Below are positions 1-40,326 of a stretch of DNA of 64,000 nt, one piece after another. Source of the stretch: Amphiscolops sp. MND2022. Its lineage: Eukaryota. Each line of letters starts with the position of its first letter. Within the stretch, counting starts at the first letter, position 1. The notes beneath the pieces were generated by a model that was not told the origin of the DNA, searched no databases, and worked only from the letters and a program-made list of their open reading frames with translations. Location: assembly GCA_964187785.1 (NCBI GenBank), contig OZ076409.1, positions 13,580,001-13,644,000 on the forward strand, written 5' to 3'. The translations under genes were made by a program, and so were the position numbers.

Positions 1-517
1 ATCCTATCAGGTAGCTCAAGAAAAACAATGGTCGAGGTTCATCAATCTTTTTATTCTATTCATTTCTCATCTCTCCCTTCTTGTTTCCTTTTCCTTCATC
101 TTTTCTTTTTGTCTTTTTCGACAATGGCAACAGTGTAAACAATAACTAGCAACTAAAAGGGTGTAATAGCACCGAAAATTTAGAGCACGGAGTGCGCACA
201 GCGCATCCACATGTAGCATAAGGTAGCATGAAAAAGCACTAACTGCGAACACAAATTGCAAATTGAATATTGCATCTAACTAAGGCAAGGCAAAAACACA
301 GTTTCATGGTTGGGTTGCCGGTCCCAAAACGGAATAACAAGGAGGATGAAGCCCGGGGGCTTCATCTCCATTTGGAGATTTTTACCCATGACCAATTGGC
401 ATTTCCATAATCGAAGTTTAGCAACAACAGAGATTGAAACCATGAGATTTCGCAAAAGTTCATCTAGCATAAGACTATTGAAGTTGGAAATCGAATGACG
501 ACAAAGTTAGGTTTGTT

Positions 518-3500
518 TTACTGGGTGGCGGAGGAGTGACGCGCTCTGGGGGAAACGTCTGCCTTTGGTTGCAGTTCGGACAGAGATCCTCTTCGCGTAT
601 TTCCTCCTCGCAGGACTGGCTTTGGTTCGGTGCTGGCAGTTTCATGGGTCCTGGGAGCCGTGTTTGAGCCACTGGGGCCATTCTCTGCGGCTACAGGAGT
701 TGAGGCGTCTGGCGAATGTTCTTGCGCTGCATTGGCTGAGCCGCTAACATTGGCAGAACTTGTGATTGACGTGGAGATTGGGATCTGCACATCCAATCTA
801 CTGGCATTAAACAGGTGCGGTAGATCCAGCGGTCTATTGCGGGTGGCAATGGGTCGTTTCTGTTTCGCACTGAGTTTCGGGCGTAGATCAGGTCGGCCCC
901 AGAGCCCGCAGGCTCTGGACCAGTTGTCCCTGTTTGCATGTTCTATGATTTGCCTGGAGGCTTCCCATTCGGGTCCGAGGGGATCACTTAGCAATTCCAT
1001 GACGTGGTAGCAAGTCTCCGCTGGCATGTCGCTTCCCATAGTAACCCTCGCCTCTGGATTCCAAACAGGCATTGTCAGTGGGGGGATGATCAAACCTTTT
1101 AGGCGCCCTTGGCGTTCCTCCAGGGTCCTTGACATCCACACGCCTAGTTTGTAGTGATCGCGATAGGCATACTGCTCATCGAAGCCCTTCTCGACCATAC
1201 TGATTGGCTTAGCCCGGATATAACCGATGGGTCCTCGCCAGTACCTGGCTGGAAGCTTGATCATTTGAAAATTGTACTCCTGATTCGTGTGGCCGCCCAT
1301 GGTTTGCACACATTCGGTCACGTACTTCCTGAGGTGTGCGAAACTCCAATTGAATCGCTGTGGTATTCCAAGGTGATCTAGGGGCGAATTGTACCAATTC
1401 ACCGGGCCGTATTCGCGAGGTAAAGGGCACGCCTTCTTTGTTCGGGCTTTGAGAATACCGGCCAGGTTTTCGTCTTGCTGCGTTTCATTCTTTATGGTGG
1501 TATACATGCGGGGTACTAGCAGAAACAGCCCACGTTCAAGCATCTGTTGATAGTTGTGCGGTTTCACGTTCTTCAGATAAGTCAGGATGGATACCGTTAG
1601 CGTTTCCGAGGCCAGTCGCAGAGGCTTGGTGGGATAGCGGAGTATCCCGGTTGGGCCAAATATCGGAGTTAGCACGGGTGCTAACACCCGTACAAGATCT
1701 TCGACTTCAGCCAAAGTGAAATCTGCCAGCTGGTTAGGTGTCAAAAATCCAGCTACCTCGGTCACTAGCTGACGTCCGTCATATAGTGGTTGGTGCTTAT
1801 CCACCCCCACGAAAAGTCCCGAGGCAAAGACCAGACTGCAATATATCCAATGATATAATGAAGTTGTCATACGCTCCAGGTGAGCGGGATAATCCTGAGC
1901 GTCTTTCCGTTGTAACAGCTTGGCTAACGCGGTGAGGCCTGAGATGTTCCCTCGTGCAATCACTAAGTATGAAAATAGCCATTCCAGATTACACTCGGTA
2001 ACCAGGTCGGTCAATATCATCATTGGGCCAGCTACAAAGCGTTTCTGCCCGAAAGTGAGCATCAGTGCAAAGAGTTCGTTCACTTGCATGGTACCGATAA
2101 TCTCGCTGATTTCGATCAACCAACTCTCGTCTAAATCGAACTCGACTCGAACAACATCGGGACTCCAACCCAATCCCAAACAGATGGCAAACTGGTCGGT
2201 TGACATCCCAAGCTCTTTTGCAATGTCTGCTACAGTGGTAGTTTGTAGCCGCTGGTACCAGGCGTCGTAGGTGCTGCTGAAGGCTTGGATTTCAGCCTGA
2301 GTTTCGCTTGTCAGTTTTGCAGCAATGTACTTCATTCCCACTGATAATTGATCGATTGTGAGGTCCTTGGTAAATTGAACTCGCGGGATGGCTCGTTCTA
2401 CTTCTCGGTCGCTGGGGACTTTGCTCATTGTGGCAGTGACTTCTGCAAGATCGGTTTTGATACAAGTCTTTCCACCGGAGGAGCGCGCGCGCTCTATCCA
2501 GTTATTCAGGCGGATTGCCTCGCATTCAGCCGTACTGGGCTCTGGGACTCGCCTTTCTCCGTCCTTGTTGAATACTAACAAGCCCATGCGAGTGCCGTGA
2601 TCAAAGTAGATGGCATCGTCGATGGTCAGCTGCGCGTTCCCTGTCTTTTCCACTGACTGTAGCACTTTAGACACTGAGGCAATATACCCCATGTAGGACA
2701 GCCAGGAGGGACGAAAGTCGTTGGAGCTAATCCGCATATTGGGCGCGCAGATCGCAAAGTCTATTTCTCTACACTTGCAAACTTCTGTCACCATGTAGAT
2801 AAATCTCTGCAAGGCGGGGGGCCATTGGCAAAAACCTGGGGGTGTCACGAACAGGGCTGGCACCTTGAGTTTATCCTTCAAGATGTTTTGGGCTTTTTCC
2901 ATCGCTCGGGCCATGTTCAATGCTGCATTGCGTACCGTTGTTCGCTGAGCTGGACTTGGATTCATAATCTCAACGTTCGCGATCTGGGCCATTAGTCCTT
3001 CACAGGCCATGTGATCGAAAACGTTGCTGATAATCACTCTGCGTGGGGGTGGCTCTTTGAAGGTTCCTGTCATCTCAGGGTCAAACATGGTGACCAACAC
3101 TTCGGCCATCTCGGGAATACGTGACAGCGGTAGAGTAAAAACCATCACGTCTGACAGCACGTTGTCAATGGGGACGTTCTTGAGGAATGTTGAGTCAATA
3201 AGTAAGGCGAAGCGCGCACGCTGCAACCTTTCTTTTGGCATTGGTAGCTGGGCTTCGAGGTCACCGGCGTACCGTGGGTTGATCTCAAAGGTCTCTCCAG
3301 CGTTGAGGAAATATCGATCAGCGAATTGCCCACGAAGGTCAATGTTGAGGGCGTCCAGGTAATTGTCTTCCACGTTTGGCAGCATATTCATTGCCTTCCC
3401 TAGCCATGGCGGCTCATTGGTAGGGGTGTGGTCGGGGCGGATTGGACGATTCATGAATACAGGTACATTCGCCTTCTTCAACTTCGCATGCTCTTCGTCA

Positions 3501-4885
3501 TTCGGAGGACACATGTTTTTCTCAAATAGCCATTCGGGCGATACTATAACTGCCGATTCCCAGATACGTCGGGAGTCCTTGGTGACCAATGTGCCCTTTG
3601 TGTTTTGCATGGGACTCAGATACGTCGGCTGTTTCGTAAAGGTCCTCTTAGTTGGGTGTTGAATCGCCTGTTTGCGGAGTGGGGTTCCAGTTGGACCACT
3701 GTTGGTTACCTTCAATCCTGGGTAGTCACCCATTATGTCCTTGACAGTTCGTTGGGATTCAGGGGTGCCTTGATAACCCACAGTTTGCTCCGTTTGTGGC
3801 TGTCTTGATGTGGACGGCTTGGGAGTCGCTCGTTGAGCCAGCGACTCGCGTGTCGTAGACTGCGTGGATGGTGGTTGCGGCAGTCCTTGTTGTTCGCCTG
3901 TTACGTCCGGTTGTGATTGGGGTGAGGGAAGCACGCATGCTTCCGACACTTTTGACTTCGTTTGGTCTGGCGCTTTGGAGGTTGTGGCCTTCTCGTTGGA
4001 AATCTTTTTGTCGGGTGGTGGCTTGCTCGAGGGGCTGTCACGGGCAGTCAATGGTTGTTGAGTCTTCTTTGTTGGAGAAGGGTCGTTGCGCTTTCTTGAG
4101 GCAGGGCGGCTCTCTCCTCCCCCTTTTTGAGAAGAGCGGGAAGGCGAACGACTGCGCTCCACAGTCACGGTGCGAGAGTGTCCTGGTTGCTCAGACTGAG
4201 GATTGATGTGGGGAATAGTGATGACACCTTGATGTGTATCAGTTGGAGTCACATTGTCGTTGCGAATAGTGACAGTGGGCAGAGCAATTCGACGTAGTTC
4301 AGGCCAACACTGCTCCATGGATCGCATGAAATCATCGTAATTGGGGTTGGCAGCCACTGCTTGCAGCGCTGAGATGACTGCTTGCTCCGCCATAGATTGA
4401 TTGGGCGAGCCAGGCACTATAGGAGCAGGAGTGCGCGCACGCACTACTGCTTGTGGTGTTGGTGCAGGAGGTGGCGGTGGAGGTGGAGGCGGGCAAGAAG
4501 GGATCTGTAAAGGTCTAGTCTGATGGACTCCGCCATTCGCAGGACTATATGAGATCGCCGCACGATCATCCGTGAAGTGATGCGTGAGATCATGGCCGTG
4601 CCACACTCCATCTTGGTACGTCATGGATCGTTGGAATCCAGGAAGCCCTGAAGTAATTGATATCGTCAGCATTGGGGCTTGCAATTGTGATTCCATTTGA
4701 GCGGTGATTGCTGCTACCCCGGCAACTGTAGCTGGCGACAGACCTTGGTCGAGTCTGTCTCGAATAAAGGCAATTTGTGGGGTACGTTGGACACGCGCAG
4801 TGTCGTAGACGCGTTGCCCCAAGGCAGGAGAGTTATCTGTAGACCTTGGCGGGACGTTGTTGCTTCTATCATTATCTTGGTTCAT
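518..4885 (-). CDS. Retrotransposon accessory ORF2 (1455 aa) with SGNH/GDSL-esterase-like domain; function unknown
   Basis: Uninterrupted ATG-started ORF downstream of pol; colinear homolog in element B (e.g. GHDLTH/GYDLTH, FVTPPG/FMSPPG, APNMRIS/APNLRIS, LRYPT). Confidence 0.88.
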   Translation of the reverse strand: MNQDNDRSNNVPPRSTDNSPALGQRVYDTARVQRTPQIAFIRDRLDQGLSPATVAGVAAITAQMESQLQAPMLTISITSGLPGFQRSMTYQDGVWHGHDLTHHFTDDRAAISYSPANGGVHQTRPLQIPSCPPPPPPPPPAPTPQAVVRARTPAPIVPGSPNQSMAEQAVISALQAVAANPNYDDFMRSMEQCWPELRRIALPTVTIRNDNVTPTDTHQGVITIPHINPQSEQPGHSRTVTVERSRSPSRSSQKGGGESRPASRKRNDPSPTKKTQQPLTARDSPSSKPPPDKKISNEKATTSKAPDQTKSKVSEACVLPSPQSQPDVTGEQQGLPQPPSTQSTTRESLAQRATPKPSTSRQPQTEQTVGYQGTPESQRTVKDIMGDYPGLKVTNSGPTGTPLRKQAIQHPTKRTFTKQPTYLSPMQNTKGTLVTKDSRRIWESAVIVSPEWLFEKNMCPPNDEEHAKLKKANVPVFMNRPIRPDHTPTNEPPWLGKAMNMLPNVEDNYLDALNIDLRGQFADRYFLNAGETFEINPRYAGDLEAQLPMPKERLQRARFALLIDSTFLKNVPIDNVLSDVMVFTLPLSRIPEMAEVLVTMFDPEMTGTFKEPPPRRVIISNVFDHMACEGLMAQIANVEIMNPSPAQRTTVRNAALNMARAMEKAQNILKDKLKVPALFVTPPGFCQWPPALQRFIYMVTEVCKCREIDFAICAPNMRISSNDFRPSWLSYMGYIASVSKVLQSVEKTGNAQLTIDDAIYFDHGTRMGLLVFNKDGERRVPEPSTAECEAIRLNNWIERARSSGGKTCIKTDLAEVTATMSKVPSDREVERAIPRVQFTKDLTIDQLSVGMKYIAAKLTSETQAEIQAFSSTYDAWYQRLQTTTVADIAKELGMSTDQFAICLGLGWSPDVVRVEFDLDESWLIEISEIIGTMQVNELFALMLTFGQKRFVAGPMMILTDLVTECNLEWLFSYLVIARGNISGLTALAKLLQRKDAQDYPAHLERMTTSLYHWIYCSLVFASGLFVGVDKHQPLYDGRQLVTEVAGFLTPNQLADFTLAEVEDLVRVLAPVLTPIFGPTGILRYPTKPLRLASETLTVSILTYLKNVKPHNYQQMLERGLFLLVPRMYTTIKNETQQDENLAGILKARTKKACPLPREYGPVNWYNSPLDHLGIPQRFNWSFAHLRKYVTECVQTMGGHTNQEYNFQMIKLPARYWRGPIGYIRAKPISMVEKGFDEQYAYRDHYKLGVWMSRTLEERQGRLKGLIIPPLTMPVWNPEARVTMGSDMPAETCYHVMELLSDPLGPEWEASRQIIEHANRDNWSRACGLWGRPDLRPKLSAKQKRPIATRNRPLDLPHLFNASRLDVQIPISTSITSSANVSGSANAAQEHSPDASTPVAAENGPSGSNTAPRTHETASTEPKPVLRGGNTRRGSLSELQPKADVSPRARHSSATQ

Positions 4886-4895
4886 GACGACAATT

Positions 4896-4912
4896 CTGAA
4901 AGAGTGCAGGTC
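4896..4912 (-). promoter_or_regulatory. Putative 3' splice acceptor for ORF2 subgenomic mRNA (element A)
   Basis: Minus strand GACCTGCACTCTTTCAG|AATTGTC, 10 nt before the ORF2 ATG; similar motif at the same position in element B. Confidence 0.5.
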
Positions 4913-5110
4913 GATTGTAGCACACTTGATAGTAGGGCAACACCATAGGTCATTTCAAGGGTAATACCAGGGAAAGTAATAGAATGTCATACACTAACAT
5001 TAAAGAAAAAGGTAACGTAACAGTTTCACATAAACTCCGTGTCGACTCACTAAACTTAATCGAGCGGATAAAAAACAAAAAAAACAAAAAAAAGCGGAAA
5101 AACGAGAGCT

Positions 5111-8100
5111 TTATGGAAAGCTAGCGACGCTTGCAATAGATACGTAAACGCGATCGTGAAGAACGACGGTCAGGGGGGTGTCGGCGAATACGTCCATCAA
5201 ACAGGTATAAAAATCAAAAAGATTACGTATTGGGCGTTCAGGATCAATGATGGCAAAGTGTACTTCTATCGCCTCCAAGCGCTCGAGTAACATTTTTAAG
5301 TGATCAAGACATCCAAAGAGAATATCAGCGAGCATAGGGCAGCGAGGTGTAGCTCGTGTGATCAAAAGGTGGATAGTTTGAGGATGGCCGTCTATCAAAG
5401 ATGTGGGTAGCGTTACAATATTGCCAACCTCTGGTCGAAGTTGAAAAATTGCATCTGCACCATGCTCACGAATGACGTAACGAAGGGCGGCAGAACTAGT
5501 TTCCAGATTTGCGGGACAACATAAAACGATATGATGGGGAGTCTGCAGGAAGTCCGTATTGGCATACTGCACATAGTCAACCAATTGAGGTCTCACGGCT
5601 CCGTGGTACACTAACTCTCGTCCGGGATCTTTGGAGAGAGCATCATCACATGCATTCAGGAGGAGGCCCTTGATTGCGCCCAAATCTTGCCATACGGATC
5701 GCGGCAATGATTGATTATCAATATTAGCCCTGGACCATGTATCCAGTGCGTGTAGGGCCGATTGGAGCGATACAGGACTAGGAAATGAGTGTGTCCATTC
5801 GTCCAGGATTCTGATTCGTGAAAAATTCGATAAAACTGCTATGATAAGTTCCAGCCACCATTCAAACTTAATTTTACCACGATATAGGTCTATGGTGTGG
5901 AAACAAGTGATTCTATCAGGAGAGGCCATCGTCCGCAAGCTCTCCAGACAGGTGTTCAAGTTAGTGGGATGAACCAGGTCGGATGCTTGTTTGGCCGTAA
6001 TTAGTAGCCACCAGTTGCTTGTAGGCTGATAAACGTCTCCTGGTTTTGCGGTGACGTTGTATTTGTCGTACAAGAGGTCAGCAGGAATACAGCGTATCAT
6101 TTGGATAGGCTCTCGCTCATAGTTGAAAGGGCCAAAAGCAATATTTGTAGGCAAAGGGGGAACAGTGATGGGCAAGGTGAACTCCAAACCAACAAGATCA
6201 TAGGTCCACTCCTTGAACCTTGGGCACGGAGCCTTCGCTATCGTAGAATCTTTCATTTTGGATAGGATATAGTCCACGGGATATGGAGTGTCACTGCGTT
6301 GTAGCCCAGTATAGGTTTTCTCTGCTCGAATAACCAAACGGTCAACCATTCCGCTCGGAAGCGATTTCTCCTGTTCACGTGCTAGCAGGATTCCCTGGGA
6401 ATTGATTGGGAAGCCCGCGTGGACCATATAGTTACATTCGCAGTTTCGTAGGCCACATGTTCCGCAACGATATCTGGGAGTACGATTGCGTCGCAGTCCA
6501 TAACGAGCGTTGGTCGATTCTGGCGGTGCTGCTTGATCTGAGGTTACCGCCGCGCTAGGGGCAGAAGAGTCAGTGTCCATGGATGGAGTGTTACGGACAC
6601 GGGTAGGAGTGTTAGGTCTGGCGTGCGTTATACGAGGAGGTCTTCCTCTGGGACGCCCTCTTTTGCGAGCGCCTCTAATAGCACCTCTCCGTTGGTGACC
6701 ACGTGGCAGCGAGGCTCGCGGCCTCGCTCTACCTGGCGGACGTCCCCGGGGTCCACGCCCTCTAGGAGCATTGGGGAGTTTCGTGGTAGTAGCTGCATCG
6801 TTGTTGGTGGGAACTGTTGCAGGGGGAATTGATCCCTTTTCGTTATTGGTTGTTGGTGTTTCAGCACCGTTGTCGTCTAGGGTTGGGTTGAGAACATTGT
6901 CATCGATTAGGGGCCAAATGGGAAAGTTACTCAACATATCCGTAAGAGATGGATTTGTCAATAATGGGGCGGATGTACCGGTCAAAGAGGTGGCGGCACT
7001 TTTGGTGGGTACGTGGATAGTAGGATTCGGGGCGATGTCCAATGCGTCGGGTACTGCTTCATTCTCTGAGAACAGAGCCTCCATTGCAGGTAGTGGTGAT
7101 ATTGGCATTTCGGGAATAGGCGCAGGCTCTTCTACTTGTGATGACAAGATAACACTTTCGTCAGGACTAGCCTGAACACTCGATAGGAGTACATCAGAAC
7201 GTTCATCGTCAGACTCTGTCGAAGAGTAGCCAAATTGTTGATAATGCAGGCGGCTGCCACCCGCGCGCATGTGTGTGCGTAACCGTGTGTCCATCCAATG
7301 TCTTTGTCGAGAAGGCAAAGAGGCATTGCTGGCTTCCGAAATTGGTTCCTCTGCACGGTAAGAAGGTTGTGAAGCATCGTCTCTCACCTCCTCATGGGAT
7401 TGTTCTGGATCAGGGTCCATGATAATAGCAACCTCGCCGTTATGCGCAGGAACAGTTGCCCATTCTGTTGGACCACCATGATGCGGTTTCAATCGTTCGA
7501 AATGCACTTTCTGACCAGTGTCCAGTATGTAGACACGTCCCTCTTGTAGCACTCGTGCTACCTTGTGAGGACCACGCCACGCTCTCATCAATTTAGGGGA
7601 TCCCTTTTGAGGAATGTATCGGCAGAATACCCAAACAGGTTCGCCCACTTCGTAGGCTTTAGCACGAATTGCTCTGTCGTACTTCAATTTTTGTCGTTGC
7701 TGGGCTTGATGCGTGTTGCGACGGACCAAGTCATGAATCTCTTGTTGTCGAGCCAGCACATGTTCCACATAGGCTTCGTGTGATTCGAATGACTGAGTTG
7801 CAAATTCTGGATACAAGAAAGTCAGGGGTATAGCTTTTTCCATGCCTCTGGTCAGCATGTACGGGGAGAATCCAGTAGTGGCATGACGTGTGGAGTTATA
7901 TGCACCCATGACTTCATCTAGGTACTGATCCCAGTCACGCATTCGTCTAGAGCAGAATACACGCAGTAGGGTGAGTAGCGTTCGGTTTTGTCGCTCTACC
8001 AACCCTTGAGTCCTGGGGTGGCCAGCAGTTGAGGTTACTTTGGTCACTTGGGCTGCTTTCATAAACTCAGCAGATACTGCCGCGGTGAAATTGGGAGCAT

Positions 8101-17232: not shown

Positions 17233-17250
17233 ATCCCTCTGTGGTCGCCA
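17233..17250 (-). promoter_or_regulatory. Primer binding site TGGCGACCACAGAGGGAT (tRNA-Arg-like), element A
   Basis: 18-nt TGG-started sequence identical to 37261-37278 in otherwise diverged leaders; complement resembles the 3' end of metazoan tRNA-Arg (isoacceptor assignment from memory). Confidence 0.8.
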
Positions 17251-17266
17251 AAAAATGATGTCTCTA

Positions 17267-18000
17267 TGTAACGACAAGCTCTCACCATTGTCGCCGTAAC
17301 CATAAGAGTTAGAGGAACACATGATATGGGTATTTTCCCGGGACAGGCGCCCATGACCATGAGCTCATTTTGCCTCTTTCGGGTAAAAACTGTCCCGTCA
17401 GAGGAGGATTCCGCTTCTTGTGAAGTGCTCGCCGGCCTGATCCAGTCTGTAATTGCTATCAGTAGTGCGCATTACGCTTTTTCTTCGAAACCAACACTTA
17501 GACAGCCTTTAAAAAATGCAAGTGGTGGAAAGGAAAAATCAAGTTTTTTCAAAGTTACACAGGAGATCGAGATGAGTAGCTCACGAGCTGTTACAACAAG
17601 AAAATACGAAAATTACTACATAATTAGCACTTTTGAGGCAGCAATTAGCCGGGGACACAAGCACGGATGCTTGGTCAAGCTAATTGACTCATTTTTGGTA
17701 ATCACAGCGTCTTGTAACGCTTCGCTGAAGAAAGCACTGGTTAGAACAAAGTTCAGTCCGTTTTGGCAGAAATTTGAGTCTTTTTCTGACAGTGGCCGTG
17801 TTTCTCTGTAATCTTCTCGTTCGGTTGGGGTCTCTCTCGAGTCTTTTGCTCAAATTCTCTTCAATTCTGTGGGCAGGTACTTGAATAAAGACACGCTGCC
17901 ATCTAGCGGAATATGACTCTTTAGTAGAGGAGATATAGTCCCTTGAACGAAATTTTCATCGAAATTTTCGAAATCGTGCACTCGATAGGTAATCGCTACA
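17267..18000 (-). repeat. Putative 5' LTR of element A (~734 bp)
   Basis: Starts TGTAACGAC 16 nt from the PBS as in element B; ends ATCGCTACA (7/9 inverted match); shares the subterminal motif CTTGAnCGAAnTTTTCATCGAAAnTTT with the element B LTR; partner LTR not in window. Confidence 0.7.
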
Positions 18001-18862: not shown

Positions 18863-18900
18863 TTATAAAATTCGAAACTAAATATGAATATGTTGATTAC

Positions 18901-19610: not shown

Positions 19611-19618
19611 TCCTCCCC
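19611..19618 (-). promoter_or_regulatory. Polypurine tract of element B
   Basis: Minus strand GGGGAGGA immediately before the TG of the 3' LTR. Confidence 0.75.
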
Positions 19619-20197
19619 GGGCCGTAGTTTGTCGTCCTCGGCAAACGAGAGGATGCTCGCACCCAAAGGGTACTCTGAGATTCACAGAAAAGGTCTTATA
19701 TCAAAGCTATGTTGATTTCACATTACTATTCTTTTCGCTTTACTACTGCATGTCTAGCACCCTAAAGCCATCGAATTCAAAAAGCACTGATTTTTAGGTT
19801 AAAAACTATACAGTCGGATTTTTTCTTTAAAAAAAGGTTTTTTCACTAATTACTCAGTTCAAGTTAAAATTTCTTTTTCTAAAATTGGGCCCCTGCGCGG
19901 CCAAGTGAGTAACAACAACTTTTGGGTTTGGTAGAAGTTTCAAATTCAAATCAAAACGGGAGGGCACCGAACCGGGACCCACCCAGAGGATGTAACTATA
20001 TTGCATTGTTGCAATGGTAGCAAAGTAAAATATACATCAAACAAAACTCAGGAATTAAGGTTTATTGCACTGAAAGTTTTCAGCACCAGTAAGATGGTGT
20101 AGCACAACTAAAATCAAGAATTGGCATCAGTACATTGATGATAGGGTCCTTTATGCTCAATTGTGTTCTAACAGCCTTGGGGGTCCAGAGGACTCCT

Positions 20198-24292: not shown

Positions 24293-24397
24293 TGGAAACG
24301 ATGATAAAGGAATGTTTAGCACCGAAGATCGTGATGGCAAGACTGATTTGGCGTGATAAGTAGGGGGGCCGCGCAGAGGCGAGGCAACAGGACAAAA

Positions 24398-24411
24398 CTG
24401 AAAAACAGGTC
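24398..24411 (-). promoter_or_regulatory. Putative 3' splice acceptor for ORF2 subgenomic mRNA (element B)
   Basis: Minus strand GACCTGTTTTTCAG|TTTTGTC between the pol stop and ORF2 ATG. Confidence 0.5.
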
Positions 24412-24623
24412 ACAGTTGGAGATAAGACATCACATAGACGGGTGGGCAGTTAAACTTTTTAGGACGAACACACAAACACAAGGTTAAAAAGTTTCCAGTG
24501 GTTAGTACTAAAATTTGCGCTTGTCGGCGCGGCTTTGTTAAAATTTTAAGGTGCTTCGAATTAACTAAAGGCAATGCAAAAGGCCAGTGGCCTGATATGC
24601 CAATTAGAGAGCGAGACGTGCTC

Positions 24624-30600: not shown

Positions 30601-33600
30601 TCGGTGGATATCACTAGGGATGGCTCATGATCACTTACCTCATGGACGGGTTTGAAGTGGCGTGGCGCTTTGGGGTCTCGTATGGTGACCCTCATGGCCG
30701 TCAAGTCCACGAGAACGTTGTAAGTGCGCAAGAAGTTTCTGCCAAGTAGGAAGTCTTCCGCGCCTAGGTGATCGGCAATGACTATGAAATTGGTTCGGAG
30801 GGTATATCCGCCCAACTGGAAGCTAACATTTTCGGCAATTCCGATGGTGTTGATGGTTTTACCATTGGCGGCATACAGTTGGATGTCATATGGTAGGAGG
30901 CTCAAGGCGTGGGGTGATGCAATTTTTTGATAGGCTTTGAGGGAGAGAATGGAGACACCGGAACCGGTGTCTATCATCCCGTACAAGGGTATTGGTTCCT
31001 GGATAGTGTTGCCAAAGGCAACCACCAGGGATGCCCGTTCGTCAATACGAGCCTCCCCCTGGGCATCTTGCACTCCGATGTTATAACATCGTAACTCCTG
31101 GCGGCCCAAGTACAATCCCTGAGGGAAGTGACCTTCTAAGACTACAATAGCGTCAAATTTCATGTCTACACCGTCCACGTTAATGGCTACCGGCACCGGA
31201 GAAACGGTCTTAACTTTCTGTATTGGGGCCAGTTTCGTTTCGTCTTCTCTCGCGAAATGTGGGAGCGGTCGCGCTGCGATAGTATATTTCACGTTTCTGC
31301 ATAATTCCTCCTTTAGTTGCGATAGCGTCAGCGTGGGTCGCGTTTTTTGTTCGGCCGAGAGAAGCAAGTGTATCGAGATAAGTGTCTCTGTGCAATCTGG
31401 GGCGGGTGCCTCTAGTGTGGTGAGTACTTGTTTCTCGCCACAAGTGACTACTACAGGTCGGGAGGGACCCCCATCTTCCGCTACTGATATTACCCGGACT
31501 TGGTCGTCTTGGCTCAGGCCATCGAATTGACTTGGTGAAGGAGCATACCAAGCTGCACGGATTTGTTCTTCGTGACTCATTTGCTCCGAGGCCATGCATT
31601 CTGACGCCGAGTGCTCAGTACGGCCGCAATTAATGCAGAAGGCAACTGTGCCTTGGGTTGGTAGGGATGCTGGGAAAACATCATAGTTCAAGCCATGTGG
31701 CTGGGAGGGGCACACCCAACTACCTGTCGGGTTCGTGTGACAGGAGTTCACTTGCTGTTGTACCGGCTTCCGTGCACGGTCTTTCAGGGGGCAGTCCACC
31801 ACAAAATGCGATGGGTCTCCGCAGTTGAAGCACGCTCTTTGGGGTTGCTGTCGATAGGCTGCCGGTGGCCTGGGTTGTTGTTGGTATGCTGCTGGTTGGG
31901 GAGGCTGTTGTTGTTGCATTTTTTGGGCAGGCGCGGGTGCTACTGGAGACTGATTTGGTTGTTGGATATTGGCTTGTTGTTGTGGAGGGGGCATCATTGG
32001 GTAGTTGTCCGAACGAGTTGAGCCTCGCATGCGTAAGTATTGTTGTACTGTGAAGCGGAGGGCTTCCACTGTTGGCGGGGTTTCTACGTATTGTTCCGGT
32101 GCATACATTAGCGCGAGGTTCCTTTTTAGTTCGAAGTTGCGTACTCCCTCAATGAATCTTTGCATGATTTCGTATCGACGAACTGTCACCTCTTCATTGG
32201 GGTAACCTTGACTACGCAGGCCTTCGAGGGCGTCAAGGTATTGCATGTAGTCCTCCTCGCTATTCTGGTTGCGGGTTCTAAATTGCTGTTGGATATGGAT
32301 TTTGCTGGAACCTGTCCCAAAGCGACGCGCCAGCAACGCGAATACTTTTTCGTCAGTGTCCCTCTCGGCTTCGGACTTATTCGTGATGTAATCTCTGGCT
32401 TCATGCTCTAGATACTCAATTATTGTCCACGCTTTATCGAGGGGGGTCGCCTTAGGGTGTGCTTTTTCCAAATGGCGTTTCATTAACATCATCCATCCAT
32501 CTGCGTTTCCGTCTCGGGTTCCTCTATATTTCGTAGGCTTGTTTTTAGATTCCTTGGCGGCGAGCAATGGCTCCAAGCCTTTAGACATGGCCGTAGATAT
32601 TGCTTCCGCTAGTGCTTGTCGTTGGGTAGTTCTCGGCGTGTCTGGGGTCTCTTCTGCCATTGAGGGCATTTCTTCAATGTCGCTGTGTTCGCCTTTGCCT
32701 TGCTCTAAATTCCGCTTGTTTGTCATCTTACGCTGTGTACTGGTGGCCACTGGCCGCGGAACGAAGTCTCTGAACGTCTGCGTTCGCGCAGGTGGGCGGA
32801 ATGCTGCACTGGAATCGGCCGTGTAGTAGCTGGTCCTGCGGGTGTTCGTTTCGTCGGCGGCGGAATGAAAATCGCCGGAGGTTGATGTTCCGCGAGCGTA
32901 CTGGTCAAACGACGGCGGGTCAGTCATTGGGTCCGTACCTGCGTCTCGTGATTCCGTGTGGGTTACTTTAGCCATCTTGCTAGCTTTAGACAGGTCACGC
33001 CTGTACGTTGCGGGCGGCACTAGTTTTGGAGGCCTAGGAGGCTCTACTGTGTGTTGTGCCACCGTCCTATAATGAGGTTGGGGAGCTTCGCTTGTAGATG
33101 GCATTTCGGTCTGTTGATATTTTTGGGGAATCCGCGGCGCCGTTTGTGCTTGCTGCGCGGGGGTTTGCGACACGATTGCTTTCACTCCCAATGTCAAATC
33201 TTGCATTGCCATCATCAAGTCCGTCATGCGGACATTGGAGTCTATGTCGCGACGCTGCATCGTGTTTGTCATTGCTTTCATGCGTTCATCTGCTTGGCGG
33301 TCTCTTTCTCTCATTATTGCAGACATCTCGGCCATGCGAGCGTCCGCTGTAGTTTCTCTCTGTTTAATCAGATCATTGAGAGATGCCATTGACGCTTCCA
33401 GTCGACCTTGATTTTGTCGCCCCTCCGCTTGCATTTCCAACAGACCTTTTCGTAGCTCGTCCATGTCCCTCATTATCATGTCGGCGCGCATCTCATGTTC
33501 GTTGTTTTCCCTCGCCAGCCTCGTCTGGACTTGAGCTAGCTGAGCCAGACTACTCTGAAAGTCTTCTCGAACCGTTTGCATTTCCTTCCTTGCTTTGGTT

Positions 33601-34286
33601 ATTGTTGAGTCAAGATTGGTGTCGGCGCTAGCTTGAGAGTCTGGTGTGTGAGACGTTCGACTCGCATTCGCATAGTTAATCTTTGGTGTTACCGAGGGTG
33701 GCGTTCGAAAAACATATCTTAACGGATTCTCTGTTATGTTCGTCTTCGAGTTTTCCACTGGCCCGTTCGACGTTTTCGCCGGTGCTTCCGGTAGCGCATA
33801 TCCGCTTCGGAAGGGATTCCCGCCTACGCTATTGATCATCTCCTGGGAACCCAGGGGGTTCTTTTCGACTTCCGCCGTCCGTGGGTCCGCCCGTGGAGTC
33901 ATTGGAGTGTCTTTTCGTTCGTTGGGAGCATCAACAATGCTGGGCTCACTGGTGGGCCCTTGGTTAGAGTTCGGCCAGTTTTCCAAGCTGTAGTCAGTGA
34001 CTTCCAGCGGAGGCCATGTGTTTCTTTGCGTGTTGTTCTCAGTATTATCCGGTAGATTGGTGCTATCGGGGGAGGCTCGCGAGGAGTTAGGCTGGCTAGT
34101 GGCAACGGCTATCTCCGCGTTTTGTTCCTGGCTCGGTACGAAGTCAGACATAGCTTCTGAAATTACGGCTGCTATGGCTGAATCTAATCTACATTCGTTT
34201 TGTTCGGTTGTGGTTTCCGTTCTTCTTCCGAAAGGGTTGGTGGCATGGAAGTCGCTCATGATGGCGTTAGTCTCGCGTCGTTCCAT
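24624..34286 (-). CDS. Gag-Pol polyprotein (~3220 aa from first ATG, context GCCATGG; open frame extends to 34334)
   Basis: CCHC x2, MIDTGS protease, RT YIDD, RNase H LDTDAS, integrase HHCC/DDE/WRGPHKV; homologous to 5111-14878. Confidence 0.95.
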   Translation of the reverse strand: MERRETNAIMSDFHATNPFGRRTETTTEQNECRLDSAIAAVISEAMSDFVPSQEQNAEIAVATSQPNSSRASPDSTNLPDNTENNTQRNTWPPLEVTDYSLENWPNSNQGPTSEPSIVDAPNERKDTPMTPRADPRTAEVEKNPLGSQEMINSVGGNPFRSGYALPEAPAKTSNGPVENSKTNITENPLRYVFRTPPSVTPKINYANASRTSHTPDSQASADTNLDSTITKARKEMQTVREDFQSSLAQLAQVQTRLARENNEHEMRADMIMRDMDELRKGLLEMQAEGRQNQGRLEASMASLNDLIKQRETTADARMAEMSAIMRERDRQADERMKAMTNTMQRRDIDSNVRMTDLMMAMQDLTLGVKAIVSQTPAQQAQTAPRIPQKYQQTEMPSTSEAPQPHYRTVAQHTVEPPRPPKLVPPATYRRDLSKASKMAKVTHTESRDAGTDPMTDPPSFDQYARGTSTSGDFHSAADETNTRRTSYYTADSSAAFRPPARTQTFRDFVPRPVATSTQRKMTNKRNLEQGKGEHSDIEEMPSMAEETPDTPRTTQRQALAEAISTAMSKGLEPLLAAKESKNKPTKYRGTRDGNADGWMMLMKRHLEKAHPKATPLDKAWTIIEYLEHEARDYITNKSEAERDTDEKVFALLARRFGTGSSKIHIQQQFRTRNQNSEEDYMQYLDALEGLRSQGYPNEEVTVRRYEIMQRFIEGVRNFELKRNLALMYAPEQYVETPPTVEALRFTVQQYLRMRGSTRSDNYPMMPPPQQQANIQQPNQSPVAPAPAQKMQQQQPPQPAAYQQQPRPPAAYRQQPQRACFNCGDPSHFVVDCPLKDRARKPVQQQVNSCHTNPTGSWVCPSQPHGLNYDVFPASLPTQGTVAFCINCGRTEHSASECMASEQMSHEEQIRAAWYAPSPSQFDGLSQDDQVRVISVAEDGGPSRPVVVTCGEKQVLTTLEAPAPDCTETLISIHLLLSAEQKTRPTLTLSQLKEELCRNVKYTIAARPLPHFAREDETKLAPIQKVKTVSPVPVAINVDGVDMKFDAIVVLEGHFPQGLYLGRQELRCYNIGVQDAQGEARIDERASLVVAFGNTIQEPIPLYGMIDTGSGVSILSLKAYQKIASPHALSLLPYDIQLYAANGKTINTIGIAENVSFQLGGYTLRTNFIVIADHLGAEDFLLGRNFLRTYNVLVDLTAMRVTIRDPKAPRHFKPVHEVSDHEPSLVISTEKVVLGPYERKLVRAQVISQKHNEYLFRNVMIRPQGVYKRSPFVSEDTLTSVGDEGIVFIALRNTTPSENVTIQTKTVLGKAEPTNFVLQPVAADTATEIDKPLFEQVNRVYTEEWLNETSSEYSSFAQNFLSSTEISEEGLSESEKRAQTDPQLLKPIPGPDLSSVLSSWGEGARDQLASVLSEYDDLFMKHKADIGRCKIAKHRIELEPEAIPHREGARRMSPDKAAKANQEVRNLLALGLIQPSYSPWASGIVMVKKKTGELRFCCDFRPLNDVTVKDGFPLPRIDESLSRIGNAKIFTSIDLAWAFWQIPLKKRDRRKTAFACELGLFEWRRMPFGLCNASATFQRSITRALQRIQQRHGSVVMAYIDDIVIATETIEDHIVRIKEVFECLREAGFKMRAEKCDFMRTETKYLGRVVSSEGIRPDPEAIVKIQEWMPPRNKEELQSFLGFANYYRDFVPFHAAKVQPLQELLKKSQHFHWEIKHQEAFDAVKEALANATALAAPNEDGRFVLDTDASAVAIAGILHQEQEHNGKTILRPIVFGSKSLTKTQLNYGAPKLEMYAVFYFIEKFHSYLAGREFTLRVDNQDLSWLKTYSIDQAMIGRWIARLDQYNFKTIHRPRTQHRNVLSKRTNDYVHREKILEKLPEVSEGFNFMTKEDYEALPTVPYFDKHGRPIPNHPELPPEARAQLPLLYILGKRPKTSLQEPPVNGAPWYPQIQWEATPTTDEDHRPSHILSITTKVPPARLDTGEPDPVLEEMPPECQRQAHALRTVGTELHEHFLTRRGLKDLHLAQNRDVHLLALRKLMNGEPLEDTMFPEDVQDFARRYFHQKKDLLFLNPDDILCVNYVPQQRALHVRPCMIVMPQLYQHEILYRAHDESGHQGVGKVLARVQERHTWPGIKRDIVNHIKHCLTCQQTKHPAGNPCYPLQNINSSNFNDLVQFDHLKLCKTESGNTGLLVMIDHFTKFAEAVPCAHDEYDAQTTAKIILNKWFARHGTPARMQSDNATNFTAEIAQELMKASQVTKVTSTPAHPRGNGLVERQNRTLLTLLRVYTSRRMQDWDEHIDGILGAYNSTRHATTGFSPYMLQHGAEKSIPLSFIYPEFVARGFDSKEEFVEHLLARQQEIHELVRRNTHQAQLRQKLEFDRHLKAKAHAVGDAVWVFCHIIPKGGTRKLIRAWRGPHKVTDVLQDGRLYVLDTGQKVHYERLKKHVPAPWDWAAHQPFGPDQNVAIIADPYVEESNEEIASDISQDSFLPEQLPEASFEMEPTGSIPPRTIQTRTQTALEQGIPRRRFSHFGYPSNSDSEREENEPPIQSPPPPVVFPDLDDLEPLYSDQEEIQPAVPTSLIPSPSGTSAPLLSNPSLTDTLSNFPLFGPQLEDPIDPIEIKPKSETENEEEITYRSPSHCSTQPDTTNRRGRPRGRPPGRGRPRAIPSSRTTTSSRTQTARSRRGPRTRMSTRAPPRKLDRAMTLPEIPESQQPPDVQDSEPRPPSRTSRYQLRANRAPRYKCGTCGSRNCSCVKHLTRDSPDNRLARGAVVPARDLLMARTHYHPQHEILTVQAQREKVETPPLVHHLIITVEKTFTSVEREVIPPLEETLKAMHATSPSDCPTYRFKEWTPPHRGGLEFTLHAIIPPLPPSMTFGELAKEDSSPEMIRCITAHQLWEKYHIASPPGDIYQPTIGWCLLVTSLDATTLVSPTTLLMCLESLRTVTEPENTLCFHMADIYRGKFLSQHWLQLIAVVFCRQAKIHFLDRQFYTPEKPVTVSEALSIVHDWSSTNLGDRPLRRTVWEDRKAILQHLAPRPTDDQSKTTGKWLITQPKTRPNYLPWISYDNTDILQAPGTVILCCPADLLSYSATIRYVIREYGQENIFRLRPSVGTAIRLTRSPTAPWNNEIFLLCTRASNKHPLLHEVLHACLTNLITQLHRNHITRIHLPIYDPERSMNLLPAWYATLRDHFADHNITIILHDRVYVTIASITSANFGGS

Positions 34287-37260
34287 GGCCACGAAATGTA
34301 ATATTTTAGCTTCCACTGCGTGTGAAGCTTCCACTATATATCGACAAAATTAAAGGTAACAAAAAAATTTTTAGATTTTTTTTTTGGCTTTTCTCTACTT
34401 CCTTCCCCCCACAAAACAAATGGCAGATGATGGAATGAGGAGGGTTTGCTTTGACTAAGTAACTCAAAAGGCTATTATCTAAACTGCACTGAATAGCTGA
34501 CTGACTAGGCCATTTAGCGCGCCTTGTCACTCGTCTTTCTTGTATTGGGGTAAAGATTTGCTAAATGGGCGTGAATTGCTTCCTACATTTGTGGAGTGCA
34601 CTAGGCACACTATCGCAGGTTTGGCTAACTAAAATTTCCTCCGCTTTCTCCTCACCTAGAAGGTTCGACTTTCTTCAACGAAAATTTTTCTTCCTTTTTT
34701 TTTTTGTGAGTTTGGGAACAATGGGTGGGCTGATTCGGGGACAATGGGTGGACAATGGATTGGAAATAATTTGGGGCTTGATTGGGAGTGTGTGGTCTAA
34801 GTATCGAGTGATGGCCTGGTCTATGGCTTTATGGCTCGTGGGTGAAGGGGTTACAACGATATGGATGATTTTCCCTGTCCTTGTTCTAGTTTCTCTACGC
34901 GTTCCGCAAACCTGGTCTGTAATTGTTTTGATATTCTCAGGCGCACTCTCGCACCCTCAGGGTATGCGAGGCGTAGAGTCGGGGTGGTTATGGCGAGTAG
35001 ATTGCACCTAGGCGACCTTAGCGGCGGGAAAGAAGTGAATTTCAATTTTTGGAGTTACCGTCTTTTGGTCTCGTAGAGCGTTTAGTGGAAGATCGTTGAT
35101 CTTGGGGCTAACTTTATATGGATTTTATAGGTTCGGTAAGGCGTGTGGGACTTGCTCAATGCGTTAAACAGATGGTTTCAGCCCTGGATGGGGTGTATCA
35201 GGATTGGGAATGCTTGGGTTTTCTATTAATTTTTACTCAAAATCTCGTTTTTCTCATCAAGCAGTACCTCCGGGGAAGGTGAAAATCACTTCTAGTGGTG
35301 CTAGCGACCTGAAAATTTCACACCGCCTAGTACACTAGCTGAATCGTGGGGAACGAGCTCCCGATTGCGTTAAAATTGATTCTGCGTGTGTCACGGCCAC
35401 TTAACAATGTTCACTGAGAAATTGGCTATGTCGCGAATTTCGCAAAAAGTGGTCAAACTCGCCTTCTAGGCGTCCTAGCTATCTGAAATTTTGTATGCGA
35501 GCGTGAATTATGCCCACGTAACAGAAAAATAAGTTAGCAGGGTGCCCAGGTCAATATTTCGCAATCCGAGTCGACAAAACTATGATGTACCCTGTATGTC
35601 ACTTTCAGGGGCTAAAATTCACAAAATTGTCAATTTCTTTAAGTTGGGTAGTAGCCGGCTGCTCAAATTGCACAAATCGTCGTGATCTAATGCCGTGGGC
35701 ACGAAAATGCAAGAATTTTAGTACTGGGGTACCCTCGAGGTATTGTACTATGCTCAACTAAAATTCAACTTTTCCGACATTTTCGGATCATTTTTGAGCA
35801 AAACTGCGGCTAAGATTTCTCGATCACTAATAATGGTAGCGCTACGAAAATTACACCACTAACGTAACTTTTTGCGGTCTACACGATGGTGTAATCCGTT
35901 TTGGGCTACTCCTGCTAGGCGAGATTTCGACCTGTACTGGAAGCACTACTCTGGTGTTCCGAAAATGTCACAAAAATAACACGTTTTTGGTTATTTCTCG
36001 GCAACCACTGGTTGGAATCACTCGCGGTTTTCTGCGTTTGTAACGTTACACTCTATAATAACAGAAAATAGGCAAGCGAAACCTGGCAGGTTCCAGATAG
36101 GGTCTCTCGAAATTGGTTTTAGGTTACACCTTGGACACTCTGGGAACACCTATGAAAAACACGTATTTTCCCTAGGAACTTTTTATTCTTCGGTTCCCAG
36201 AGGCTCGAGATGGTTTCAACAGTACAGTAGGAAGGTGTGACTGCTTTGTTTAGGGGAGTGGGGTTCTTTCAATTATTATTTTTGATGTTATAGCTCTCAG
36301 GTCTATGGGGTCCTCTACTCAGGTCTATTTTAATGAAAGAAAATTGGTGTTAAAACTTCAATTTATATTGGGGGTGTTCAAAAACCGTCTTGGTAGTAGT
36401 ATTGCGTACTACCAAGCACAACAACAAAAATTTTTTTTTGGGCCTTTCAAGAGGCTTGGGAGCGAACGCCCAAGGCTTCGCCCTTGTCAAAATTGGTCAA
36501 AATGGCCAATTTTGCCTATTTTTGAACAAAAATCGCTGAAATTTTCATGTTTTCTTGAAAAATAGCCCAACAAAAACTTTTGTTCTCGACCTGGTAGGTC
36601 CGACAGAACGTTTTTCAGGTATTCCCACAGGCCGTAAACAATTCTATAAGATTTTGGCTTTCAAAACGGGAAATTTCGATATTTGAGCAGTTATTAGTGT
36701 CATTTTTGGCGTTTTCGAGCTCAAGTCCTTAAAATAACTGATGTAAATACCCTGTGGGTATTATTCACAGTTAATTTATGCAAAAACAGGCCTGGGAATA
36801 CTAATTTGGGGCTAGAAAACGTAAAGGGAACGAAATAACCCAGCTATTTTCGGTGAATCGGCACCAGGTGGGGAGGAAGAGGTTATGACGTGAAGCACCT
36901 GCAGTCCTGCACTCAGCTAGTTCGGGTCTTCACAAACCGTCCTCGCAGTCCCTGTACATTGCTAATTAGCTGAAAAGAAGCTGGAAAACCCGTTAAAACA
37001 CGTTCCGGATAAGCCGGAATAGCTCTTTTAATGAGTACAGATAAGGTACAAGGGGGTACACGGTTTCAAACTGTCTTTTTCAGGCTAGGGACCTCGGAAA
37101 CATGCAGGAAACGCAGGAAAAACACTAATATAAGGCCCAAAGGGCTAGAATAAAGCAATAAAAACAATCTAGGACTCTCCCAAAAGCTTCTCCTAGATCC
37201 GGACCTTTCAGGGCCGGAAAGCAGAAGTTGCTCCTAGCAGGACGCGGTAAGGAAAAAAAG

Positions 37261-37278
37261 ATCCCTCTGTGGTCGCCA
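37261..37278 (-). promoter_or_regulatory. Primer binding site TGGCGACCACAGAGGGAT (tRNA-Arg-like), element B
   Basis: Identical to the element A PBS; 16 nt inside the 5' LTR. Confidence 0.85.
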
Positions 37279-37294
37279 TAAAAACTATTCCAGA

Positions 37295-38004
37295 TGTAAC
37301 GTCCGGCTAGCGGCGCACATCTAGGAAGAGGGACAATGCCTAGGATGCTTAAACAGGAGACCGTTGTCTTACTACATACCTAGACACTAGTTTTTGATCC
37401 CAAAATGGTCTCCATGGGGGACTTTTCTAACGTCTAAGGAGACTCCTCTAATTAGAGCTCCGAGGCGACGTGCCGGCACTCTCAAAGTCCGGACACGCCC
37501 CACGAGCCTGTAAAAACAAATCCTAAGGTTTTTAGCGCGTTCCTGCTATCTCCTACATACTTCCGAGGTCCAAAAAGGTGTCTATCCGAAAAATGTCATT
37601 TCGACTGTTATGGGCATGAAATGCCGACCTAGAAGGTCAGGCATGGGAAAAATGACAAAACGCATTAATATAAATCAACAAAATAAAGGGGGATAAGCCC
37701 CGAGTGGAAATACAGTTACTGTTTGCAGGTTTTCGGGGATCCAGTCATGTAGTTCTAGAATGGCTCTGCTTTCCCAGGGATGACATAGCACCGGGTAGCG
37801 TTCTTCGATTTCTATCCTGTGGATCTTCATGTCGTCAGTCGTCTACTTCTTTTTCACCTCCTGTCGTTCTTCTCGTTCACGTGTTCTCTCTTTCATTTTT
37901 GTGGGCTTTAAGGACCTGCCAGGTCGGCCATTTTGATTCGCACCTTTTTTGGTTCTTGATCGAATTTTTCATCGAAAATTTGGTGTTGACTGGTGGACGT
38001 TACA
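37295..38004 (-). repeat. 5' LTR of element B
   Basis: 710-bp match to 18901-19610. Confidence 0.97.
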
Positions 38005-40136: not shown

Positions 40137-40326
40137 TTTCCCCCTCTTTCTTTTCTCCTTCTCAATTTGAGTTTGAAGGCCCCTGGGGGCGTTCCTTCTT
40201 CCGGTAGGAAGTCTGCAGGCTTCTGGACTCTCTCCGGCTGTGGTGTTCCTTTTGTTGAGTTCCACAGGTTTTCCGTAACATACAATGATTTTTAGTCAGT
40301 CTATTTTAACCCCAAAAGTTTCCAGT

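Follow-up and report, generated by a model that had tools for sequence, protein, structure and literature searches.

A giant Ty3/Gypsy lineage in Amphiscolops with a macrodomain-like module behind the integrase and a large second reading frame

Here we describe two retroelements in a 64,000-nucleotide stretch of the genome of Amphiscolops sp. MND2022 (contig OZ076409.1, positions 13,580,001 to 13,644,000 of the forward strand), which we call the window. The minus strand of this 64-kb window carries two adjacent Ty3/Gypsy elements, here named A and B. We consider it likely that both belong to a giant (~19 kb) Ty3/Gypsy lineage that has diversified, reached a high copy number and carries selected cargo, and that both are young insertions which appear to be autonomous. 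In favor of this view, the replication machinery is complete, the reading frames are open, the long terminal repeats (LTRs) of B and A are 99.6% and 99.86% identical, respectively, and the cargo is under selection.

The canonical machinery is complete in one fused frame encoding Gag with two CCHC knuckles, protease (PR), reverse transcriptase (RT), RNase H and integrase (IN). Three accessory modules accompany it. The first is a long noncoding leader behind a putative primer-binding site (PBS) that lies 16 nt inward of the LTR. The second is a post-integrase extension in which basic GRP repeats and a Cys cluster precede a probable, degenerate macro-like domain and, at the very end, a predicted macrodomain. 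The third is a separate second open reading frame (ORF2) of ~1,400 aa, with an N-terminal module, a predicted SGNH-esterase-like domain (carrying the nucleophile-type Ser motif and lacking the Asp/His block) and a large helical domain.

Layout, ends and copies of the elements

The original prediction for this DNA, made from its letters, held that two diverged elements share one plan even though their LTRs and leaders are largely unalignable, and our comparisons confirm this. Four stop-free frames lie on the minus strand, measured from stop to stop: 24624-34349 (3241 aa), 20198-24409 (1403 aa), 5111-15043 (3310 aa) and 518-4954 (1478 aa). The Gag-Pol proteins of A and B are identical at 1436 of 3126 residues (46%) and the ORF2 proteins at 238 of 755 (32%), with the N-terminal module of ORF2, aligned separately, at 36 of 106. 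At the DNA level, the two elements align in just three coding stretches, at 66-68% identity, and their LTRs and leaders do not align. The predicted order is found as described: first a 2-3 kb leader, next the fused ~3,200-aa Gag-Pol, and then ORF2 as its own frame of ~1,400 aa. Counted up to the first ATG, the leaders measure ~2.97 kb in B and ~2.35 kb in A.

The prediction had also placed this layout within positions 1 to 38004. This is correct for B, which is complete, but A is cut by the start of the window, and its 3′ LTR (734 bp) lies 493-1226 bp before window base 1. Other genome copies match A-type upstream DNA (36 places, 93-95% identity) only from window position 18001 downwards. Because the 3′ LTR of A is outside the window and these copies stop at 18001, we assign A a length of 19,227 bp and regard 18001-18900 as a spacer that is part of neither element. 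Comparison of the window with itself gives a 711-bp direct repeat at 18901-19611 and 37295-38005, and the LTR ends as read delimit 710 bp. The features of the two elements, including their target-site duplications (TSDs), are as follows.

18901..38004, minus strand: element B, complete; 19,104 bp, with an LTR pair, TG..CA ends and the 3-bp TSD GTA/GTA
37295..38004, minus strand: B 5′ LTR, TGTAACG...CGTTACA; 710 bp
37260..37278, minus strand: putative B PBS, TGGCGACCACAGAGGGATC; 19 nt, 16 nt past the end of the 5′ LTR
34287..37259, minus strand: B leader; ~2.97 kb up to the first ATG
24624..34286, minus strand: B ORF1, fused Gag-Pol; 3220 aa from the first ATG, plus stop
20198..24292, minus strand: B ORF2; 1364 aa from the first ATG, plus stop
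18901..19610, minus strand: B 3′ LTR; 710 bp, 3 mismatches to the B 5′ LTR
1..18000, minus strand: element A; 19,227 bp in all, running 1,226 bp beyond the window start
17267..18000, minus strand: A 5′ LTR; 734 bp, 99.86% identical to the A 3′ LTR
17232..17250, minus strand: putative A PBS; the same 19 nt as in B, after a 16-nt spacer
5111..15043, minus strand: A ORF1, Gag-Pol frame; 3310 aa stop to stop, with domain order and tail as in B
518..4954, minus strand: A ORF2 frame; 1478 aa stop to stop, 1455 aa from the first ATG

Pfam recognizes in both Gag-Pol frames, in the same order, a zinc knuckle, an aspartic protease, RVT_1, RNase H, an integrase zinc finger and an integrase core (Gag-Pol residues ~1124-1206 for PR, 1507-1667 for RVT_1, 1733-1865 for RNase H and 2118-2330 for IN). 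In A and B alike, a motif scan finds the CCHC knuckle twice, DTG in the protease and GPH behind the integrase core. The corresponding positions in B are listed here.

31596..31832, minus strand: two CCHC zinc knuckles, residues 840-853 and 905-918 (Pfam zf-CCHC; motif scan)
31071..31190, minus strand: protease-half-like segment without DTG, residues 1054-1093 (hhalign, 40 columns)
30732..30980, minus strand: aspartic protease, DTG at residue 1127 (Pfam; motif scan)
28755..29831, minus strand: RT and RNase H (RVT_1, E 7.8e-36; RT_RNaseH_2, E 5.9e-26)
27360..27998, minus strand: integrase with H2C2 zinc finger and rve core, GPH at residue 2435 (Pfam; motif scan)

Judged by domain order and ends rather than by an RT tree, A and B belong to Ty3/Gypsy (Metaviridae): the order is PR-RT-RNase H-IN, and the elements have LTRs with TG...CA termini, a polypurine tract, a PBS and a TSD. 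They deviate from the usual Ty3/Gypsy ends in the 16-nt PBS offset and the 3-bp TSD; Gypsy TSDs are usually 4-6 bp. An assignment to the chromoviruses was rejected, as Pfam finds no Chromo family in the whole Gag-Pol at E up to 0.01 or in the tail pieces at E up to 10. With the same limit of 10, Pfam returns only noise for the tail halves, the ORF2 halves, the region upstream of PR, the PR-RT and RNase H-IN spacers and the Gag N-terminus, and a suspected dUTPase-like PR-RT spacer is therefore unsupported. The pseudo-protease of the original prediction corresponds to the 40-residue segment just upstream of the protease, which matches the C-terminal half of the element's own protease (hhalign probability 49.5%, E 1.7e-4) and so gives that suggestion weak support. 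Separately, Gag-Pol residues ~22-560 (32661-34286, minus strand) form a poorly conserved, partly coiled-coil-like extension of 540 aa before the conserved Gag core, which is unusual for a Gypsy Gag and attracts just weak FAM184/Golgin-type noise in Pfam.

The offset PBS was likewise called correctly. The same 19-nt sequence, TGGCGACCACAGAGGGATC, stands 16 nt past the 5′ LTR in each of the two elements, whose LTRs and leaders cannot otherwise be aligned. Related elements of this genome (L040-L045) carry the PBS variants TGACGACC... and TAACGACC... at ~16 nt from a GTTACA LTR end, and the offset is therefore a trait of the lineage. The polypurine run GGGGAGGA directly adjoins the B 3′ LTR. TSDs are 3 bp long: the window copy of B has GTA/GTA, and A has CTT/CTT. 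Nine B-type copies were examined, including the one in the window; two lack a 5′ end at the expected place, and the other seven have both ends at the expected distance and a matching 3-bp TSD (7/7). Given the 16-nt offset, we infer that unintegrated DNA would carry extra bases past the LTR end for integrase to remove.

To look for a primer, we searched the genome with a guessed T-arm pattern, which gave no match. A shorter pattern retrieved only the PBS variants of related elements and an array with a 174-bp period, and ARAGORN reported 0 tRNA genes in four loci. This tandem array (period ~174 bp; contig C9 of the same genome, ~57.54-57.56 Mb, outside the window) carries a 14-nt PBS complement followed by A in each unit and is the source of most of the 303 forward matches to the shorter pattern; it could be a satellite or a primer-related, tRNA-derived repeat. 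The leaders of A and B contain no sense ORF of at least 60 aa, and positions 1-38100 contain no Rfam family and no tandem repeats detected by TRF.

Searches of the 1.07-Gb assembly reveal thousands of candidate copies in several subfamilies. B ORF2 as the query gives 4,108 candidate matches. Every one of the 51 that were scored is 97-100% identical, and in 42 of these the match contains no stop and lies in a frame that stays open for at least 1,400 aa. Further subfamilies are present in many copies each, and the entire lineage may account for a considerable part of the genome. One of these subfamilies, for which 98 of 4,433 candidates were scored, has Gag-Pol frames of ~2,770 and ~3,050 aa and a tail that is 46-48% identical to that of an outside relative.

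A profile search of 1.84 billion representative proteins returned 579 at E up to 0.001, of which 120 have an E of 1e-30 or lower. Almost every one of the 150 proteins listed is a short fragment, and all 10 clusters looked up are unnamed. Two database proteins (P0006 and P0009) are 100% identical to places in the Amphiscolops genome and therefore come from this species. For three others, the best identity to anything scored in this genome is 27-28% (P0171), 27-30% (P0220, ORF2) and 46-48% (P0302, 380 residues of the tail), which indicates that the family also occurs in other assemblies. Scans of the IMG/VR and JGI metagenomes with the ORF2 alignment found no relative.

Selection was assessed by the Nei-Gojobori method between subfamilies of this genome whose synonymous divergence is unsaturated (synonymous divergence, dS, of 0.2-0.6), using the ratio of nonsynonymous to synonymous divergence (dN/dS). 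The pairs gave the following values.

B and L019, post-integrase domain: 388 codons, dS 0.51, dN/dS 0.116
B and L019, ORF2: 1394 codons, dS 0.60, dN/dS 0.107
L022 and L023, post-integrase domain: 397 codons, dS 0.24, dN/dS 0.081
L022 and L023, ORF2: 1432 codons, dS 0.20, dN/dS 0.167

Across the subfamilies compared, the ratio ranges over 0.08-0.15 in the post-integrase domain and 0.10-0.18 in ORF2, and core windows lie at 0.02-0.13. Windows of the ORF2 core lie at 0.02-0.21 in both pairs, and the N- and C-terminal parts at 0.2-0.5. The prediction of purifying selection had named a ratio near 1 as the contrary outcome; the ratios found are ~0.1, and both accessory regions are under purifying selection.

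The post-integrase module

The conserved C-terminal part of the integrase reaches approximately residue 2477 and is followed by a poorly conserved linker and then by a conserved block of ~390 aa. The linker contains a short motif that is conserved, a basic run with three GRP repeats, which may resemble AT-hooks, and a C..C....C.C cluster. The terminal domain of Gag-Pol is predicted to fold as a macrodomain, as described below, instead of the chromodomain of chromoviruses. Three features of this region in B are listed.

26028..26345, minus strand: basic GRP repeats and conserved C..C....C.C cluster of the post-integrase linker (sequence reading and motif scan; 3 repeats in B, 3 in A)
25326..25637, minus strand: candidate first, degenerate macro-like subdomain, residues ~2905-3008 (hhalign; PARP14 macro1-2 alignment)
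24672..25100, minus strand: predicted C-terminal macrodomain, residues ~3084-3226, TARG1/DarG-like (Foldseek, VIA, wide structure search, PDB profile)

An AlphaFold (AF2) model of the tail, built on an alignment of 10 sequences, has two confident parts, at model residues 118-218 and 301-435. For the second part, the best PDB matches by Foldseek are TARG1/C6orf130 (E 2.2e-7, template modeling score 0.80, root-mean-square deviation [rmsd] 2.2), DarG, PARP14 macro1-2, MacroD2 and alphavirus macrodomains. VIA-align, applied to model residues 301-436, gives Z 16.9 for TARG1 (rmsd 2.1, 130 of 141 residues aligned), 15.1 and 14.5 for DarG, and 10.7-11.5 for viral macrodomains. A search of 48,161 chains that is independent of Foldseek again places TARG1 (16.0) and DarG (15.1) on top, with the next row at 12.5; its 33 chains with Z of 8 or more are nearly all macrodomains or leucine-aminopeptidase (LAP) N-domains. 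Macrodomains that act as readers score lower (macroH2A1.2 at Z 10.1, ALC1 at 11.2). At the sequence level, a 15-sequence profile that includes outside relatives matched five PDB sequences, all of them TARG1, at E 0.11-0.15. A profile of the C-terminal half only (5 sequences) had 0 PDB matches, and the profile of the N-terminal half returned noise only.

According to the model, the last ~140 aa of Gag-Pol would fold as a macrodomain closest to TARG1 and DarG, an assignment that is strongly supported by fold and weakly by sequence. TARG1/OARD1 and DarG are the best structural matches to these residues (rmsd 2.1-2.7, 130-135 aligned), but the identity is 13-18% and, in a weak alignment, an Arg takes the place of the ITK Lys and D-P-E faces the glycine loop. 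The domain also differs from both proteins in being fused to a retroelement integrase with a degenerate copy before it. Its invariant charged residues are D..Q, R, TR, D.ER and HDR.

The first confident part of the tail model has the same order of strands and helices as the second. Compared by hhalign, the two match at E 4.2e-4 over 109 columns, whereas reversed controls reach 0.033-0.034; with 5 sequences only, the two halves do not match significantly (probability 1.4%, E 0.037). PARP14 macro1-2 spans both parts (model residues 116..441) with Z 10.1 and 228 residues aligned. Taken alone, the first part reaches Z ~7 at most, to LAP-type N-domains, and ESM Atlas gave no usable match for it. 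A tandem arrangement, in which a degenerate copy precedes the terminal macrodomain, is probable but unproven. The tandem macrodomains of the original prediction therefore stand for the C-terminal copy, by fold and weakly by sequence, and only tentatively for the first.

ORF2 and the surrounding DNA

ORF2 begins with a conserved N-terminal module (~80 aa), passes through a disordered stretch into a 740-aa core that is also conserved, and ends in an acidic tail. Two domains can be outlined in B.

22337..22978, minus strand: SGNH-hydrolase-like alpha/beta domain, predicted at residues ~478-691, DST at 509 (VIA; motifs)
20981..22027, minus strand: helical C-terminal domain, predicted at residues ~795-1143 (AlphaFold model, ESM Atlas; outside the SGNH-like domain the core is helical, with no fold assigned)

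The AlphaFold model of the core is poor (predicted local distance difference test [pLDDT] 41.8), and Foldseek finds nothing for it at E up to 0.001. Its best rows, at E 0.03-0.1, are nevertheless GDSL/SGNH esterases, lipases or acylhydrolases, and proteins named as such also make up 41 of 50 rows in a second look with VIA, aligning to model residues ~59-272. In VIA, platelet-activating factor (PAF) acetylhydrolase and TesA align with Z 10-11 and rmsd 3.2-4.1 over 158-183 residues; examples are PAF acetylhydrolase at Z 11.1 (178/212 aligned) and TesA at Z 10.8 (158/180, rmsd 3.2). A (V/I)DS(T/S) motif follows strand 1 in all eight sequences that cover the site, five of them from the protein database, and most sequences have an Asn after strand 3. 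As judged from the motifs, the SGNH/GDSL catalytic blocks (Ser I, Gly, Asn III, Asp-x-x-His V) are incomplete. For the ORF2 core, ESM Atlas offered helical-repeat rows below 0.9 only.

The SGNH-like ORF2 that had been predicted is upheld at the level of fold, as an SGNH-esterase-like (flavodoxin-like) domain, but in a low-confidence model and with part of the catalytic set missing. We read ORF2 as a nonenvelope accessory protein with a divergent, possibly noncatalytic SGNH-like domain.

Beyond the elements, GC content falls to ~0.35 in the AT-rich flank, compared with ~0.50 inside them. Two long open exons on the plus strand, at 57434-58834 and 59559-60860, belong to a gene for an amiloride-sensitive (DEG/ENaC) channel, a family typical of animals, in keeping with an animal host. 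The first exon also encodes LDL-receptor class A (LDLa) and CUB domains, which channels of this family do not usually carry at the N-terminus. Other dispersed or local repeats, with 74-96% identity, lie at 39901-40137 and 47322-47558; at 43699-44512 and 45440-45787; and at 55376-55747, 58983-59354 and 63293-63552.

Competing explanations and the meaning of the cargo

Several observations weigh against the assignments made above and are best considered together. The pattern and ARAGORN searches found no cognate tRNA for the putative PBS. The AF2 model of the tail is weak overall, with a mean pLDDT of 53 and confidence only in residues 118-218 and 301-435. Pfam detects no Macro family in the tail pieces even at E up to 10, and the PDB profile matches, all above E 0.1, speak weakly for the domain at the sequence level. 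The weak alignment (E 0.11) sets D-P-E opposite the glycine-rich loop IGCG of TARG1, and the invariant Arg of the family (LLxTR) falls on the Lys of TARG1 ITK, which is catalytic. Because the glycine loop is replaced and an Arg faces this Lys, canonical ADP-ribose binding or hydrolysis by the predicted macrodomain is unproven. The ORF2 model is weaker still (mean pLDDT 42), and no SGNH family is found by Pfam in the ORF2 halves even at E up to 10. Motif inspection finds no DxxH block after strand 5, and the nearby His is not conserved, being D or Y in distant relatives. The SGNH-like domain may not be an enzyme.

The additional length of the elements could have been passive, made up of captured host fragments or nested insertions without function for the element. 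Such an origin would fit the failure of Pfam to recognize anything in the tail or ORF2 and the disorder predicted for large parts of both, yet we find it hardly credible, given dN/dS of ~0.1 in both accessory regions, an identical module order in elements only 32-46% identical, the presence of the modules in relatives from other assemblies, uninterrupted frames, and the matched ends and 3-bp TSDs of seven of nine copies. ORF2 might also be an envelope-type gene, in which case the elements would resemble endogenous retroviruses (ERVs) and pass between cells. It lies downstream of pol, where env genes sit, it is large and under purifying selection, and B has a hydrophobic stretch at residues 1006-1024 (Kyte-Doolittle [KD] value 2.18). 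This stretch, the only one in ORF2, is proline-rich and below threshold in A, however, and the hydropathy scan of ORF2 shows nothing like an N-terminal signal or a membrane anchor. The listed PDB or viral matches, which barely cover the helical half of the protein, include no fusion-protein fold; against viral structures, Foldseek gives nothing at E up to 0.001, and its rows mix phage and giant-virus GDSL-like proteins with poor long alignments. With an SGNH-like domain as the sole assignable fold, we regard an envelope function as very improbable. Instead, as an accessory protein probably made from a subgenomic message, ORF2 would aid particle, ribonucleoprotein or membrane-linked steps, by analogy with the esterase ORFs of long interspersed nuclear elements (LINEs) and rotifer LTR elements.

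The macrodomain would stay joined to integrase and deal with ADP-ribose, and two roles deserve the most attention. It may remove host-laid ADP-ribose from element proteins or nucleic acid, a counterdefense like that of viral macrodomains and DarG; we favor this reading and give it close to an even chance of being correct. It rests on the nearest folds, which are erasers, and on the precedents of NADAR and fish-ERV macrodomains. The module might instead be a chromatin reader that, together with the GRP repeats, recognizes ADP-ribose marks and tethers the integration complex to ADP-ribosylated/PARylated chromatin or AT-rich DNA, the role played by the chromodomain in chromoviruses; we think this somewhat doubtful but worth serious consideration. 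Tethering is suggested by the position behind the integrase, the neighboring basic repeats and the altered loops. The C-terminus of the integrase is the place of targeting modules in other Gypsy lineages, as described for the chromodomain in portions of 10.1101/2021.11.30.470311 and PMC12477816. The GRP repeats and the Cys cluster lie just upstream of the macro module, its first copy is degenerate, an invariant Arg stands opposite the TARG1 Lys, and the glycine loop is replaced. On the other hand, the best structural matches are the hydrolases TARG1 and DarG at Z 15-17, well ahead of macroH2A1.2 and ALC1, and the many invariant charged residues suggest an active site. That the macrodomain does something else altogether is unlikely.

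Some parts of this architecture have counterparts elsewhere. The planarian element Burro/GYPSM1, as portrayed in sections of PMC6431247, is also an oversized animal Gypsy-like LTR element with thousands of copies, a huge polyprotein with noncanonical domains, and accessory ORFs. Burro exceeds 30 kb, and the same sections list BIR, MATH/TRAF, ankyrin, BCL2-like, SUMO-like and dUTPase-like cargo and an in-frame env-like region. Pfam finds none of these families in either Gag-Pol, and the cargo of A and B is instead the post-integrase macro module and the SGNH-like ORF2. Ogre of dicot plants is likewise a giant Ty3/Gypsy element with extra ORFs of unknown function, but in a plant host, and the sections of PMC6431247 on it attribute its length largely to LTRs of 1.9-6.5 kb, whereas the LTRs of A and B measure 0.7 kb and their length is internal.

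For ORF2, the closest parallels are Vesta and Juno of bdelloid rotifers. According to the relevant passages of PMC5408684, they carry an SGNH/GDSL-type ORF3 downstream of pol that has none of the transmembrane or coiled-coil features of env and for which an auxiliary role is proposed; the same passages report GDSL esterase ORF3 proteins in rotifer LTR elements and esterase ORF1 proteins in LINEs. The rotifer ORF3 is described there as retaining invariant catalytic residues and as detectable by HHpred, whereas the domain in A and B lacks the Asp/His block, is seen by fold only and forms part of a 1,400-aa protein that also has a large helical domain. An SGNH-fold domain in a retroelement is also known from the esterase ORF1 of CR1/L2/RTEX LINEs (ZfL2-1 esterase, PDB 4c1b), and 4c1b_B is among the Foldseek rows for the ORF2 model (rank 13, E 0.075).

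Retroelements that carry a domain of ADP-ribose metabolism have been described as well. NADAR, an ADP-ribose-related domain, occurs in an Ectocarpus Gypsy lineage and in oyster Tx1 LINEs (PMC12477816); its fold is a different one, and it sits at the N-terminus of Pol. Fish epsilon-like ERVs carry macro-domain ORFs, as mentioned in part of PMC4977317 (citing Basta 2009), but these are Retroviridae with separate ORFs, whereas A and B have a macrodomain pair (the first copy tentative) fused behind an animal Ty3/Gypsy integrase. Full-text literature searches, with Repbase, Dfam and GyDB outside their scope, found no macrodomain reported in Ty3/Gypsy. A broader scheme, which we offer as a long shot, is that this host restricts retroelements by ADP-ribosylation, possibly of nucleic acid, and that the integrase-fused DarG/TARG1-type macrodomain strips ADP-ribose from the replication intermediates or proteins of the element itself. 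Erasers would then have been acquired more than once, as a macrodomain here and as NADAR in the brown-alga Gypsy and oyster LINE lineages.

Animal LTR retrotransposons are usually lean, and a doubling in size with selected cargo is rare (Burro, Ogre). The lineage described here is abundant, looks active, and carries cargo that can be assigned to folds. Its 16-nt PBS offset and 3-bp duplications imply unusual end-processing by the integrase. If the integrase-joined macrodomain is a reader, it would represent a new way of choosing integration sites. If it is an eraser, it would point to an arms race over ADP-ribosylation between an animal host and its retroelements, parallel to those between viral macrodomains and PARPs and within bacterial DarT/DarG systems. 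The integrase-fused, TARG1/DarG-like macrodomain is the most valuable lead from this analysis, and with it the cargo hints at a connection between retroelements and the biology of ADP-ribose that is still unexplored.

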